Translations under genes and position numbers: made by a program
Shown: in pieces, positions 6,601 through 48,879 of the stretch
How the letters are laid out: each line of letters opens with the position of its first letter
Numbering within the stretch: position 1 is the stretch's first letter
The notes under the pieces: generated by a model
Databases searched by the model: none
Told to the model about the DNA's origin: nothing
Seen by the model: the letters and a program-made list of their open reading frames with translations, nothing else
DNA from: Eledone cirrhosa
Taxonomy: Eukaryota
DNA: 64,000 nt
Assembly (NCBI GenBank): GCA_964016885.1
Contig: OZ024742.1
Coordinates: forward strand, 38,564,001-38,628,000
Direction of reading: 5' to 3'

Positions 6601-9600
6601 TTATAAATGTATGTTATGAGAACTTATTTCATCTGTAGAGTGAAAATGAACTGCAATTGTGATGATTTTCTACTTTCACCTCTGCATCAAAATATATATA
6701 GAAAGCAAAGAAGCCGTTCTTAACTCTTTTGATGCAAAACTTCCTGAAACCCCACTTGGTTATATGATACAAAGTTGTATACATATAAAAATGAGAAAAC
6801 TCATCGCTAGAACAGCCATTAAAACAGCTAAATGCTGTAAGACACCGATGGGCAAAAATGCCTGAGGACAGAAACCAGCGGCCAGTGGTCAACAGAGGGG
6901 GCAATCCACAAGGTGGGTGACAGGCAGATGAAATATAGAAAAGATTGAAAGAGGAAGACAAGAAGTGTGTTGCCATACAGAAGTGACTGGAAGAAATAAA
7001 GAAAGGCAATGTACAAGATAAGTTTACACACACATTTTCTCACCCTCATCAGCTCTCAAACCAGCAAAATGGTTTTGCACAATTTATATTTTTAACCATC
7101 CATTATAATTTTATGTAAGAACTTTGTAACACTATTTGTTTTAAAGTGTTTATGTTTATCTAAAAATCTTCAATCATAATATTATGCAAGAAACTTTAAA
7201 TTATGTTCTAAACACCAGTTTAATAATGAGAGTTATATTATTAAATCACTCAACATTCTTGATTATTTTCAAAATTATTTGTCTTTCATTGGAAATATAG
7301 TAGCATAAGAATTAATCAATTCTTAAAAAAACTTACCAGGCTCACCAAACATCTTCATTTTAGTAAGCTCCTCTTTTTCAAATGTAGCAGTCCTTCTGCC
7401 GAATGTCTTGGAATATTTGATGTCTTGAGGCATCAGAATTTCGCCAGTATCCTGAAAAATATTTTCAAAAGTACCAAGTGAATAATCGAGTAAAATATGT
7501 TTGATTTGTTTGCTAATGTTCTTAATGATTTGTTTGCACATGTTGTTAGGTCTCAGAACAGCTTGTCTCACTCTTCTGACATGATAAACATGAATAAAAT
7601 GCTGACTGAATTATTCATAGATCAACTACATCCATACATACTATGAGAAGTGCCATGATTTATGGAATGAGATATGAGTGATGATCGTGGAGAAGTAGAG
7701 AAATGAGAATGATCTAGTGGAGTATTTATCACTGAGAGAGGGAGACAGATAATGAATTGCAGAGAATGAATAGAATGGATATTGTGAAGAAAAATAGAAA
7801 GAGATAGTTGGGTCATGTGTTGAGGAAAGATGAAAGTGACTAGGTAAAAGGAATAGAATTAGTGATGGATGTTGTGAAGAAAAATGGAGTGAGATGGTTG
7901 GGTCATGTGTTGAGGAAGGATGAGAGTGGATGAGTGATAGGAGAAATAGAAATGAAGTAGAAAAAAAAAGGGGGGGGGGGGTTATGGCTAATGATGATGG
8001 AGGAGGAACTGAAAGTTAGAGGGTTGGTGAGGTGGCATGCAGACAGTAGGACAAGATGGATAAGATTGTCATAAGGGCTGTATGATTAGCCTTTGCTTTA
8101 GGAGGGTAGATGGCTTTATTGTTAACTATAACTATACTATCATCATCATCATTTAACACCTACTTTCCATCCTGGCTTGGGTTAGACAGGTCATTACGGT
8201 CTGTGACTAGACATCAAAGTTGTGTTCATACATTCATATTGTGGTATGGTTTCTCCAGCTGGATGCTACCATTAACAACTTGAGAGCGTATTGGGTACAT
8301 TTTATCATGACGAGCACTACCACTACTTTACAGAGTGTAATGAGTACTTTTAATCATGGCTCTAGTACTACCACTTCACAGAATGAACTAGGAGCATATA
8401 ATGTAGCACTAGCACTAGAGCAGTTGTCATGAACTCAGTAAGATTAATGAGCTATCTCTACTCTATATTGTCTTCATTTGATTGCCAACTACTTTCATAG
8501 TGTAATGGGTGCAATTTATAGTGACACCAACACTAGAGAAGTTGTATCCTATGTATATTTCTAATAAATCAGAACTAATTAGGGCCTCTGAGCTACAATT
8601 ATAGTATAAAAATACTATGGTAGATCAAGTGTAGGCTTAAATGAAGAAATGAAAGATTAGAGATAATCATGATTGTGAAATAGTGAAACAATGTGATATT
8701 AATGTCAGTTATTAGATGGATGGATTACCCAACACACATCTAAGTGAAAGAGGACAACAATGTCATTAAAAGTTTTATTACCTCTAGATAAAATTGTCTA
8801 TTAGACTTCAGCTCACGATTCTCCCTCTTGTCAAGACGAACTGCTGAAGGCTTTTGGCAGCGTTGAATTAGTCGGTAACTGGAATTAGAGACAGGGAGAG
8901 TTACAAATATATATATATATATTTCGCTGACAGGATAAACATGAATAAAATGCTGACTGAATTATTCATAGATCAACTACATTCATACTATGAGAAGTGT
9001 CATGATTTATGGAATGAGACATGATCGTGGAGAAGTAGAGAAGATTGGAAAGAAGAGAAATGAGAATGGTCTGGTGGAGTGGAGTATTTATCACTGAGAG
9101 AGAGGGAGACGGATATATATTTATATATAAGCAAAAGGGATATTCAATTTGTTGGTAATTCAACAAATATAAATGTTTATAACAGATTCAGAGCACTCAA
9201 CAGAGTTTCTGGAGTATAATATTCAATATTAATTAAATGGAAATTATATTTATAAAACCATATTTATTCTATTTTATATATTTCAAGCATACCAAAACTT
9301 TGGTACGCTTTCATCAGATAATATACAAAGTTTGTTTTATAAATTTTATAAATTTTAACATAACCAAGAAAAAGATACCTTAACGCTTCAAGCTTTCCTT
9401 GGATAGTCAAGGAAAACTTGAACTGTTAAGGTATCTTTTTCTTGGATATGTCAAAATTTATAAAACAAACTTTGTATTTTATCTGATGAAAGTGTACCAA
9501 AGTTTTGGTATGCTTGAAATATATAAAATAGAATAAATATGGTTTTACAAATATAGTTTCCATTTATTTAATATCATGAGAGAGAGAGAGAGAGAGAGAG

Positions 9601-12600
9601 AGAGAGAGAGAGAGAGAGAGAGAGAGAGAGAGAGAGAGAGAGAGAGAGAGAGAGAGAGAGAGAGAGAGAGAGAGAGAGAGAGAGAGAGAGAGAGAGAGAG
9701 AGAGAGAGAGAGAGAGAGAGAGAGAGAGAGAGAGAGAGAGAGAGAGAGAGAGAGAGAGAGAGAGAGAGAGAGAGAGAGAGAGAGAGAGAGAGAGAGAGAG
9801 AGAGAGAGAGAGAGAGAGAGAGAGAGAGAGAGAGAGAGAGAGAGAGAGAGAGAGAGAGAGAGAGAGAGAGAGAGAGAGAGAGAGAAATAAAATTACATGC
9901 CTACAAATGAATATATATATATCATCATCATTTCACATTCAATTTTCCATGTAGGCAATACATTTATTTTATATAGAAATAACTTTTGCAGGACTAGAAG
10001 AGTTTCATTAATTTGAAATCATTAAGAATGCCAAATAAGTTTGGTCAAGTTCTGTATATATATATATATATGCAAGCGTGGAAGATGGGCGTTAAACGAT
10101 GATGATGATGATGATAGATATACACATATATAATTAGGACTGTGATGAATGGAGAGATGCTGAATAGGACCCATCCCATCCTTGCAAGCAGGGACAAGCG
10201 GACGTAAAATGATGATGATGTAGTAACATGTGCTTACGCCGTATTTGACTATATAGAATTAGTCTGTTAGTTGGGATTTTAAAAACCCTCTGAATGGGAA
10301 AAAGGATGAGTATTAACGTAGATGGGACACAAACCCACATCATTGGTTTGCTGGACCAATGTATTACCATTACATATATATTTCAACTTGGACAAACTTA
10401 TATGACTTTTGTAATGATTTCAAATGAATGAAATAGTTCTAGCCCTGTAGAAGTCATTTCTACATGAAATAAATGTGTACTTTCTCTACTAATGTATTGA
10501 GAGCCATATTTCTGGTTCCCAACTGTTTCTCTTTAGAAACCATTCTTAATTATATATATTAGGTTGGACAGAAAGTTCTCGCCATTTCTCAAATTTTTAT
10601 TGACTTTGTCGTTTTTTAACATTAGGAAAATTTTACAAGTCGAAATAATCGCCATCATTTGAGATTACAATCTGCCATTGTTTAGGAAGGTACATGATTC
10701 CATCCCTGTAGAATTCTGCTGCCTTCAATGTAAAGAATTCTGTCAGCTACTGATTTAACTGGTCTTCATTGGTGAAGGTCTTTGACATCATTGCATTGCT
10801 CATTGAGAGAAAAAGGTGATGGTCTGTAGGTAAGAGGTCAGACGAATATGACAGGTGGGGCAGAACTTCCCAACCTAGTTCCAGCAGCTTCTCACAGTCA
10901 TCCTTGATGTAAGTGAACGAGCGTTATCATGAAAGAATCGAACGGGCCCGTGGTGTGTGCACACCTGTGCAATTTTCAAGTTGTTGGCAATAGAAACCAG
11001 AGGTTATGCTGGTTTTCGGTGGAAGCAGCTCATTATGGATGACACCTTTCTAGTCCCACCAGAAAACTCAGTAGGGTCTTACAAGGGTGGAGGCCAGCCT
11101 GCTTGCCGTTGTGGAGCACTCTTTTTATCAACCCATAAGCTCTTGCACTTGACATTAATGAGGTGACATGATTTTTCATCCCCAGTACTGACTTGGTCTA
11201 TGTAGACATGTCCAACCCTAGCTAGCAGGGAAAGTGGATATTAAACGACTCGAGTTGGTCCCAAGTGGTCACCTCCCCAGCAAAAGGTGACAACGCTTTG
11301 GACCTACTCTTCACCACTACTCCTGAAACGGTCATTAGTGTTACTGCTGAGGAACCTTTAGGTGACTCTGATCATGCTATGATCATTGCCAATCTATCCC
11401 TCATGGGCAGTAACAAGAACCACAACCATCTCCAAACTGCTCACTTTGACTGGAATAAAGCAGACTGGAACTGTTACTGCACCGAGTTTGCAACGGCCAA
11501 ACTGGCTTGAGTTCTACGACTCTGGAGATGTCAACACTGTACTCCAGAACATCCTGAGCTCAATATGGACAGCATGTGCAGCATCGGTGCCACATAAGTG
11601 GAAAAAACATCCCAAAAGTGCAATTTGGGAGACTGCAGCAGTCCATCTTGCCAGAAAAGAACGGCGCAATGCTGAACGTGAGTACAAACTTCACAAATCA
11701 GACATTAATAGGAAGAGGCGAAATAGATCGTCCAACCACCTCAAACAGGTGACAAAAAAGGCAGTGCTTCAATTTGAGCAGCGCATAGCAACCAGCCCTG
11801 ACAGTAAGGTGTTCTGGAAATATGTTCCATTTGGTCCTCTTCGCAATCCCCACACAAGCCAGGTTACTGACGACCCCAAGGAATGCGCAGAGCTCATTGC
11901 TGAACGCTATGCAGGCATTTTCACTATTGAAGACCAGAGTGTACCATCTCCACCACCTATGACACCGGACTCTATTACAACCATGGAATTTACACCTGCA
12001 ATGCTGCGACGTCACCTAAAAAATAAACGCAACCATGCCTCTCCTGATCTTGATGGTGTTACGTACCTGCTTCTTAAACGTGGTGGGTACTTCCTTCTGC
12101 ACCAGTTATCACGCTTCTTCCAATTCTGTCTGAACAACAGTGCTACTCCAGAACAGTGGAAAACTGCCAGTGTCATTCCTCTGTTCAAAAAGGGTGACCG
12201 CACATCACCTGTGAACTATCGTCCAGTCAGTCTTACTAGTTGCAACGCTAAACTGATGGAATCCTGTGTCAGAGAAACACTTTGGAACTTCTGGAGCTCT
12301 CACAATCTTATCCGGCCCCTCGCAATTTGGATTTATCCCCAACTCCAGCTGCTGTGATCAACTTATAGTTTCTTGAGGACATCACCCGGTTCACTGATGG
12401 CGGCTCATGGGTGGATGTTGTTTACCTTGACTTTGCGAAAGCCTTCAATTCTGTGTCACACAAAAGGCTTATGGCAAAACTCTCTGCAATGGGTGTGAAG
12501 GATGATCTTTTTAACTGGTTGAAGTCCTTCATTCTCAGTTGAAGAGAGGTAGTCACGGTTCTGGGACAGCATTCCTCACCATATGAGATGTCATCTGGTG

Positions 12601-48480: not shown

Positions 48481-48546
48481 TATTTTGTCTGAGGAAGGCA
48501 TAACATATTGTTAATATGATATCCCTGAAATATATATAATGAAATA
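48481..48546 (+). ncRNA. Minimal type I hammerhead ribozyme (intact core), right arm of fold-back element 3
   Basis: Stem I TATTTTGT / ATGAAATA (two GU pairs); core CTGAGGA (48489-95); stem II AGGCATAACATATT-GTT-AATATGATATCCCT; GAAA 48527-30; palindrome ATATATAT; AUA triplet ending at 48538. Confidence 0.8.
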
Positions 48547-48879
48547 AATATGGTTTTATAGATATAGTTTCCATTTATTTAATATCGTATATATATATAT
48601 ATATATATATATATAGGGGAAGAGTGAAGGAAAGCAGAAAGAAATACTAACAAAGAGCAAGTTTTCTATTAAAGTCAGTTTTATTCATAAAACTAATTAC
48701 TATATTACTTATGCAATATATGGTAAAAAAATTATCAGTTAAACATACTGATTAGTTAGTACATAAAGAGAAGACAAGATATTCCGGTTGGGTGTAACGT
48801 CGCTTGACAAATAACGAAAGCGAAGTAAAGAGTCCGGACATCTTCACAAGATGATACTGAAGAAAAGCAATGACCGCCT

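Follow-up and report, generated by a model that had tools for sequence, protein, structure and literature searches.

How Penelope-like elements (PLEs), the closest retroelement relatives of telomerase, choose the sites at which copying starts, and how their inverted copies with a tail on one side only arise, has long been puzzling. The question was raised again by three palindromes, here elements 1, 2 and 3, in a 64,000-nt stretch of the 3.0 Gb genome of Eledone cirrhosa (contig OZ024742.1, positions 38,564,001 to 38,628,000; this whole stretch is called the window). Each palindrome carries a hammerhead-like motif in both inverted arms and a tail at one end, and the initial annotation of the window described them as a self-propagating, non-autonomous PLE or retrozyme family. 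The palindromes are short head-to-head 3'-end pieces of three PLE families of the Hydra clade (families C, A and B for elements 1, 2 and 3, respectively) and not a new ribozyme element, which removes a false family from the annotation. The kind of element and its form of insertion are already known; the literature searched contained no mention of the signals at its ends, namely twin hairpins and a pile-up of copy ends at a TCA together with an extra G.

Three palindromes and their coding parents

Each palindrome was recovered where it had first been placed, with inverted arms at 9226-9347 and 9453-9574 for element 1 (96% identity), 47641-47795 and 47810-47964 for element 2 (97%), and 48269-48409 and 48455-48595 for element 3 (99%). 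The tail motif occurred once per element (3 in the window vs. 0.00 expected from 100 shuffles), and the genome-wide copy count proposed by the initial annotation gave 14,458 exact matches, vs. 0 for a reversed-pattern control. Location in or next to (TA)n held generally, except that the tail-less end of element 1 adjoins (GA)n.

A linked open reading frame (ORF) for a reverse transcriptase (RT) and a GIY-YIG endonuclease, for which a search had also been suggested, was reached for all three elements by following neighbouring tail-motif matches. L056, the parent of family A, contained an 808-codon open frame between two pseudo-long terminal repeat (pLTR) copies of the end of element 2; L058 and L065 were the parents of element 3, and L303 and L300, with a broken ORF, those of element 1. 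The arms in the window matched the 3' ends of these parents at 87-96%.

The parent proteins were encoded by a single ORF, with the GIY-YIG domain C-terminal to the RT. YRDDGL was invariant in 38 aligned proteins (37 homologs), and Atlas neighbours (0.95-0.98) carried HTH_animal, GIY-YIG and RVT_1; neither Pfam, searched with two parents and five homologs, nor PDB, searched by sequence, gave a match. The RWK-type motif read RLRWIA or RIRWRA in L056, L058 and L303, with a third residue other than K, and the same three loci carried DKTNN or a similar form of the DKT motif. The CxCx5C linker was present in the parents as CNCPVKNKC, CNCRDRSKC and CNCRIKSNC, CxxC as CNLC or CDLC, and CxH as CLH or CRH; no CCHH motif was seen in them. 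Insertion into (TA)n and a hammerhead near the 3' end were also found in the parents. The unit lengths (3,717 and 3,754 nt) exceeded the 3 kb given for the Hydra clade; the available text of PMC8557442 says "generally" under 3 kb, and the 3.7-kb units were therefore not treated as excluding this clade. A Naiad origin (TA target, long-spaced cores) was rejected because the endonuclease is C-terminal. The PLE origin, the type I hammerhead with palindromic stem III, the inverted pLTR with a one-sided tail and the targeting of microsatellites, all put forward in the initial annotation, were borne out. No related locus was confirmed in a metagenome scan.

The only named homolog (P0010), a "GATA zinc finger domain-containing protein 14-like" of Argonauta hians, was apparently a mis-annotated Hydra-type PLE protein, and L231, L262 and L069 held ORF pieces of further, more distant Hydra-type families.

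The features of the three elements in the window were the following (H1, the hairpin near the outer end of the arm; identities are to the parents).

9130-9408, minus strand: tail-bearing arm of element 1 (family C), with putative transcription start, extra G, hammerhead, H1 and tail; 87-89% to L303
9192-9217, minus strand: H1 of element 1
9264-9326, minus strand: element 1 hammerhead, with A in place of U16.1 and predicted to be inactive
9394-9577, plus strand: tail-less inverted arm of element 1, adjoining (GA)n; hammerhead at 9474-9536 with the same U16.1 change
47639-47812, minus strand: tail-less inverted arm of element 2 (family A); hammerhead at 47683-47755; 91-92% to L056
47810-48047, plus strand: tail-bearing arm of element 2; hammerhead at 47850-47922, predicted ribozyme cut after 47913, H1 at 47962-47991, tail ending in (TA)n; 94-95% to L056
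48025-48133, no strand: tandem duplication of the tail end of element 2, (TA)n and the tail end of element 3, with ACAA microhomology at its bounds, from the sequence and a repeat match to the parent of family B
48188-48409, minus strand: tail-bearing arm of element 3 (family B); hammerhead at 48317-48384, H1 at 48247-48271, tail; 96% to L058
48406-48588, plus strand: tail-less inverted arm of element 3; hammerhead at 48480-48547, predicted cut after 48538, ending in (TA)n

A single (TA)n (48025-48254) received elements 2 and 3 in tail-to-tail orientation, and a tandem duplication over their junction came after.

Hammerhead motifs in the arms

The arm plan first described (8-bp stem I, CTGANGA, paired stem II, GAAA, 8-nt stem III and A) was present in six of six arms, and relaxed scans of the window returned exactly these six. 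A strict scan of the window gave no match, because stem II carries a mismatch, and the Rfam check, advised at the outset, was also empty, both at gathering score in the window and at E<=10 over 47500-48700. Whole-motif folding z-scores were unremarkable (-0.9 for element 2 and +0.4 for element 3). With Rfam empty as well, the hammerhead call rests on the core letters and on stem covariation, not on folding energy.

The core CUGANGA...GAAA, the three stems and the NUH site were found in elements 2 and 3, and their assignment as type I hammerheads of the PLE kind is supported by these sequence features. Stem III, said to be palindromic in all elements, was so in elements 2 and 3 but not in element 1, where it read ATATATAA in both arms; U16.1 was changed to A in both, which breaks the cut site, so that this ribozyme is predicted to be inactive.

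Covariation was followed in 381 hammerhead instances from the loci sampled, which are related forms and not independent. A-U/G-C and C-G/U-A swaps occurred at six of the first nine pairs of stem II (2, 3, 5, 6, 8 and 9), and pair 4 was a constant C.pyrimidine mismatch. Wobble pairs were in favour of the sense strand: forms found two or more times, again related and not independent, gave 32 G-U vs. 11 A.C. The covariation of stem II inferred at first from the window thus holds across copies as compensatory changes, but the differences among the three elements are those among the three parent families. The idea of a selected hammerhead on each strand was abandoned: the second-strand copy is a by-product of inversion and not a selected antisense ribozyme. 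Opposite-strand hammerhead pairs 100-700 bp apart have been published and ascribed to truncated PLEs (PMC4209133, from the text available).

Ends of the copies and the proposed mechanism

In read-through copies the tail ran into a second bulged hairpin, H2, which directly preceded the start codon and followed H1 at a distance of about 90 nt in families A and B; ACTC...GAGT in H1 vs. GCTC...GAGC in H2 was a compensatory change. H2 had 736 genome-wide matches vs. 14,458 for H1, and the 30 H2 loci examined mostly continued into the beginning of the ORF. Both outer ends of the copies preceded the CTCC of a hairpin by 7-9 nt, the tail-less end that of H1 and the tail end that of H2. For these end registers, taken from loci that were not a random sample, a distance of 8 nt to H1 was compatible with 61 of 69 family A ends and 7 nt to H2 with 94 of 108; in family B the figures were 25 of 33 (7-8 nt to H1) and 24 of 30 (8-10 nt to H2). 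The distance from the ribozyme cut to H1 varied (53, 57 and 61 nt), while the outer ends kept to 7-9 nt from the hairpin. The same hairpin was recognised by eye in four Hydra consensi from PMC8557442 (coral, sea cucumber and copepod), twice in Hydra-1_Ajap and Hydra-1_Crog and once in Hydra-2_Amil and Hydra-2_Ajap; the published consensus of Hydra-1_Crog begins 6 nt before its second hairpin copy.

At the inner ends, arms were mapped, with microsatellites masked in the reference sequences, at 70 loci from the first 100 listed tail matches, holding 71 tails (54 of family A and 17 of family B or its relatives). Family A arms of both kinds piled up about 177 nt upstream of H1: the range -172 to -183 took in the ends of 16 among 54 tail-bearing arms and 11 among 32 inverted ones. 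Genome-wide, a non-parental base stood directly before the A of TCA in 4,746 family A copies vs. 442 one base later, and parental sequence upstream of the pile-up was found, by eye, in 0 of 30 such loci. This base was G in 44 of the first 100 copies listed and, in the control at the next base, in 22 of 100 (counted by hand; p=0.0015), in arms with 12-14% G. In family C, where the parental base is C, G was counted 91 times vs. about 51 for A+T (the latter scaled from the first 100 of 422); among the loci examined, G marked a junction in 15 of 15 and C parental sequence in 28 of 28. In the window, the tail-bearing arm of element 1 started with A at 9407 and the extra G at 9408 (centre G-ACTATCC vs. 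C-ACTATCC in the parents), although its partner arm could be another source of the G in this copy. Elements 2 and 3 stopped about 3 nt (tail-less arm of element 2) and about 8 nt short of the putative start-site G, and were joined by microhomology.

An initiator-like TCA was present at a like place in all three families (TCACT in B and C), in line with an internal promoter inside the pLTR of Penelope (PMC2377424) and an initiator-like TCACT in the rotifer pLTR (PMC3846280), both from the portions of these papers available. An untemplated 5' G has been ascribed to cap copying in L1 and SVA (PMC3287187, from the text available). There was no pile-up at the predicted ribozyme cut (221 vs. 151, with junctions in only 12 of 30). 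The pile-up at TCA with an extra G, together with the lack of one at the ribozyme cut, points to a capped, uncut RNA as the putative template. A pause of the RT at a hairpin was considered as the cause of the inner boundary and rejected: by eye, hairpins stand on one side of it in family A and on the other side in family B. In L012, L266 and L190 the junction contained several short re-copies of the start-site end, which suggests that template jumps recurred at the 5' end of the RNA.

We propose, with a probability of about 0.6, that the palindromes are 5'-truncated, head-to-head insertions of three Hydra-clade PLE families, for which two RT-endonucleases would prime from both cut ends of (TA)n on one capped, uncut RNA. 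Transcription would start at the TCA in the upstream pLTR, 178-195 nt before H1 (178 in family A, 195 in B and 186 in C). H1 and H2 would each position one enzyme, with copying starting 7-9 nt upstream of the hairpin, and both target ends would be extended on the same RNA. Both cDNAs would proceed in the direction of the cap, whose copying would add a G, unless they ended before it; microhomology would then join them head to head. H2 lies beyond the part that is copied and is thus missing from the stubs, which would not give rise to a further tailed copy. A different route would be needed for copies that are long or full-length, with a tandem RNA, a read-through RNA or a circle as template, or with strand transfer to the 3' pLTR.

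The points that weigh against this proposal are several. The start site, the cap, the binding of hairpins and cleavage are all deduced from DNA copies. The TCA of family B showed neither a pile-up nor an excess of G (3 junctions and 1 G in the loci examined), and the family B stubs examined ended about 8 nt downstream of it at an AT microhomology. The extra G could reflect a terminal-transferase preference or microhomology with the partner arm and not cap copying. The register of family C was weaker (9 nt in 18 of 46, 17 of these 46 being probably family B ends reached through a shared anchor), its one clear H2 copy (L303) had lost the spacer, and all end registers were blurred by TA ambiguity. 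The hairpins folded weakly (z -0.2 to -1.8). Tail-bearing arms longer than 750 nt (7 of 54 in family A and 7 of 17 in family B) are not produced by the simple model.

Circular RNA would explain the long tailed arms and the tandem pLTRs, an idea raised in the available part of PMC4209133; in this reading the hammerhead would cut and circularise the RNA, the circle would be the main template and the inner pile-up would mark an RT pause at an RNA structure and not the 5' end of the RNA. Hammerheads conserved with compensatory changes are in its favour, and copies that cross the cut site do not alone exclude a ligated circle. We consider this unlikely: the pile-up is one base sharp at a TCA found at a like place in three families, it carries the extra G, and almost no copies end at the ribozyme cut.

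A slightly less likely source of the inverted arm, within the same Hydra-clade origin, is self-priming (fold-back) of one cDNA, or an antisense template, in place of two enzymes; such a model has been proposed for rotifer Penelope elements (PMC3846280, from the text available). Arm divergence was lower within than between copies (2.0 vs. 4.0% in family C, 0.7 vs. 1.7% in A and 0.3 vs. 3.4% in B), and singleton variants were found in both arms vs. one arm 15 vs. 36, 4 vs. 16 and 5 vs. 4 times, respectively. Private variants common to both arms fit an origin of both from one RNA, but they could also come from fold-back synthesis, which they favour, or from later gene conversion. The perfect palindromic centres of L050 and L133 also suit fold-back. 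In many copies, on the other hand, the tail-less arm was longer than the tailed arm and extended as far as about 3 kb into the ORF, against 50-270 nt for the tailed arm (L042, L034 and L117); it could not be copied from the shorter arm, which argues against simple fold-back, as does the extra G that both arms can carry (L106).

In the 70 loci the lengths of the tail-bearing arms were continuous, with starts upstream of the hairpin by as little as 10 nt or by more than 1.5 kb, and an inverted arm ending at the hairpin site was found within 1.5 kb for 25 of 54 family A and 8 of 17 family B tails. Fourteen junction types were counted among the 25 best matches to element 2, whose own was unique, and 23 among the 25 best matches to element 1 (family C). 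In the sequencing-run contigs compared, position 47812 was joined to many differing downstream places and no contig spanned the palindrome stretch. As the junction varies from copy to copy, each palindrome was probably formed anew. A self-propagating non-autonomous PLE or retrozyme family of fold-back units, as initially annotated, is accordingly largely refuted, although the copy number is high, some junctions recur (5, 5 and 4 of the 25 best matches to element 2) and such PLE derivatives have been published (PMC8557442; 10.64898/2026.07.22.740005; both from available text). The recurring junctions stood on up to three subfamily backgrounds, the stubs lacked H2, coding parents exist, no fixed internal structure inherited by the copies was seen, and the insertions were single and head-to-head, without the head-to-tail array of at least two hammerhead units that marks retrozymes. 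DNA transposons of the MITE (miniature inverted-repeat transposable element) or Foldback type, in which the likeness to a hammerhead would be due to chance and to which long inverted arms, a TA context and the lack of an ORF would be suited, were refuted by the coding parents and have a negligible probability: the arms are 3' ends of RT elements and not symmetric terminal inverted repeats unrelated to a retroelement, the ends are asymmetric with a 90-nt extension on one of them, and the centres vary.

If this reading of the endpoints is true, copying from just before two hairpins and run-off at the capped RNA start would explain the long-puzzling insertion shape of PLEs. In a broader form, to which we give somewhat less than even odds, PLEs would integrate through two enzymes programmed by twin RNA hairpins, the fold-back stubs would be the equivalent of retroviral strong-stop DNA, and the hammerhead would have no part in making the template; as the first pass would always leave out the second hairpin, this would account for the tail at one end, for the head-to-head inversion and for the fact that only copies with tandem pLTRs remain active. 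The stubs mark three endpoints (two starts and one stop) at base resolution in thousands of copies. They yield, at about 300 nt, a minimal RNA whose hairpins and spacing rule are defined, which makes the mechanism testable.

Elsewhere in the genome, L306 (G000:C4:267439500-267449000) consisted of three units in tandem, each about 3.3 kb long, in which the family C start motif and an H1 were separated by about 1.77 kb; neither a hammerhead nor an ORF was matched, and this may be a tandem form that is derived and non-autonomous. Elsewhere in the window, frames of 249-441 codons at 11383-13502 and 17427-21733 resembled what we take to be endonuclease and RT parts of other non-LTR (long terminal repeat) retrotransposons, and 12882-13535 had an inverted copy at 31820-32473 (89%). 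A weak transfer RNA (tRNA) match at 24150-24207 on the minus strand (31 bits) was probably the head of a tRNA-derived short interspersed element, and a similar stretch flanked L023; around it, 22737-22981 and 23979-24223 formed a 245-nt inverted pair (97%, about 1 kb apart) with no hammerhead core.

Comparison with known systems

The literature search, with most subscription papers outside its reach, found no publication naming twin hairpins or a cap-derived G in PLEs. For the Hydra clade, hammerheads, (TA)n targets and the inverted truncated copy were already published by Craig et al. 2021 (PMC8557442), whose available text is the basis of this comparison; tails on one side have likewise been published for this group of elements. 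The elements described here share with this clade the RW and DKT motifs, the CxCx5C linker, the lack of CCHH, the CxxC and CxH around the endonuclease core, the hammerhead, the (TA)n target and an inverted 5'-truncated copy (in that clade, Penelope-13_HM). They differ in a unit of about 3.7 kb with a long 3' untranslated region (vs. under 3 kb), in a tail of about 90 nt (vs. 30-40) and in a hammerhead whose stem II measures 26-36 nt and whose stem III is an 8-nt palindrome without a loop; hairpins and a start-site pile-up are not mentioned in that text.

With the PLE hammerheads of Cervera and de la Pena 2014 (PMC4209133), as far as their available text goes, the type I fold, the long helix II, the extra base after A9, the palindromic helix III suited to dimers and the opposite-strand pairs were common features, while the conserved C.pyrimidine mismatch at stem II pair 4 and the 8-bp stem I were particular to the present copies. 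A promoter inside the pLTR, and TCACT at a like place in families B and C, were shared with Penelope (PMC2377424) and the rotifer pLTR (PMC3846280); in the available portions of these papers the inner end of inverted copies is not tied to the start site and a cap-derived G is not reported, and antisense self-priming is the model preferred in the rotifer paper. Non-LTR retrozymes (10.64898/2026.07.22.740005, from the text available) are likewise short, ORF-less, PLE-derived and provided with a type I hammerhead, but form head-to-tail arrays of a fixed unit, whereas the insertions seen here were single and head-to-head with variable centres.

The Poseidon element PAc of Anolis carolinensis, in which two internal RT starts define the tail, both strands are extended and unprocessed RNA is used (Frangieh et al. 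2024, PMC11167929, from the main text available), has in common with the model proposed for the present families a tail bounded by two internal RT starts, the cutting and extension of both DNA strands, an AT-rich target, a predicted dimer and no need for hammerhead cleavage. PAc belongs to another clade, and copying by its RT begins within the ORF, in an AC-rich stem loop, whereas both putative sites lie upstream of the ORF here; its binding motif is placed only within the first 172 nt, and no duplicated hairpin at a fixed distance is named in the main text. By analogy with PAc, the twin hairpins are a candidate signal for two internal starts of this kind.

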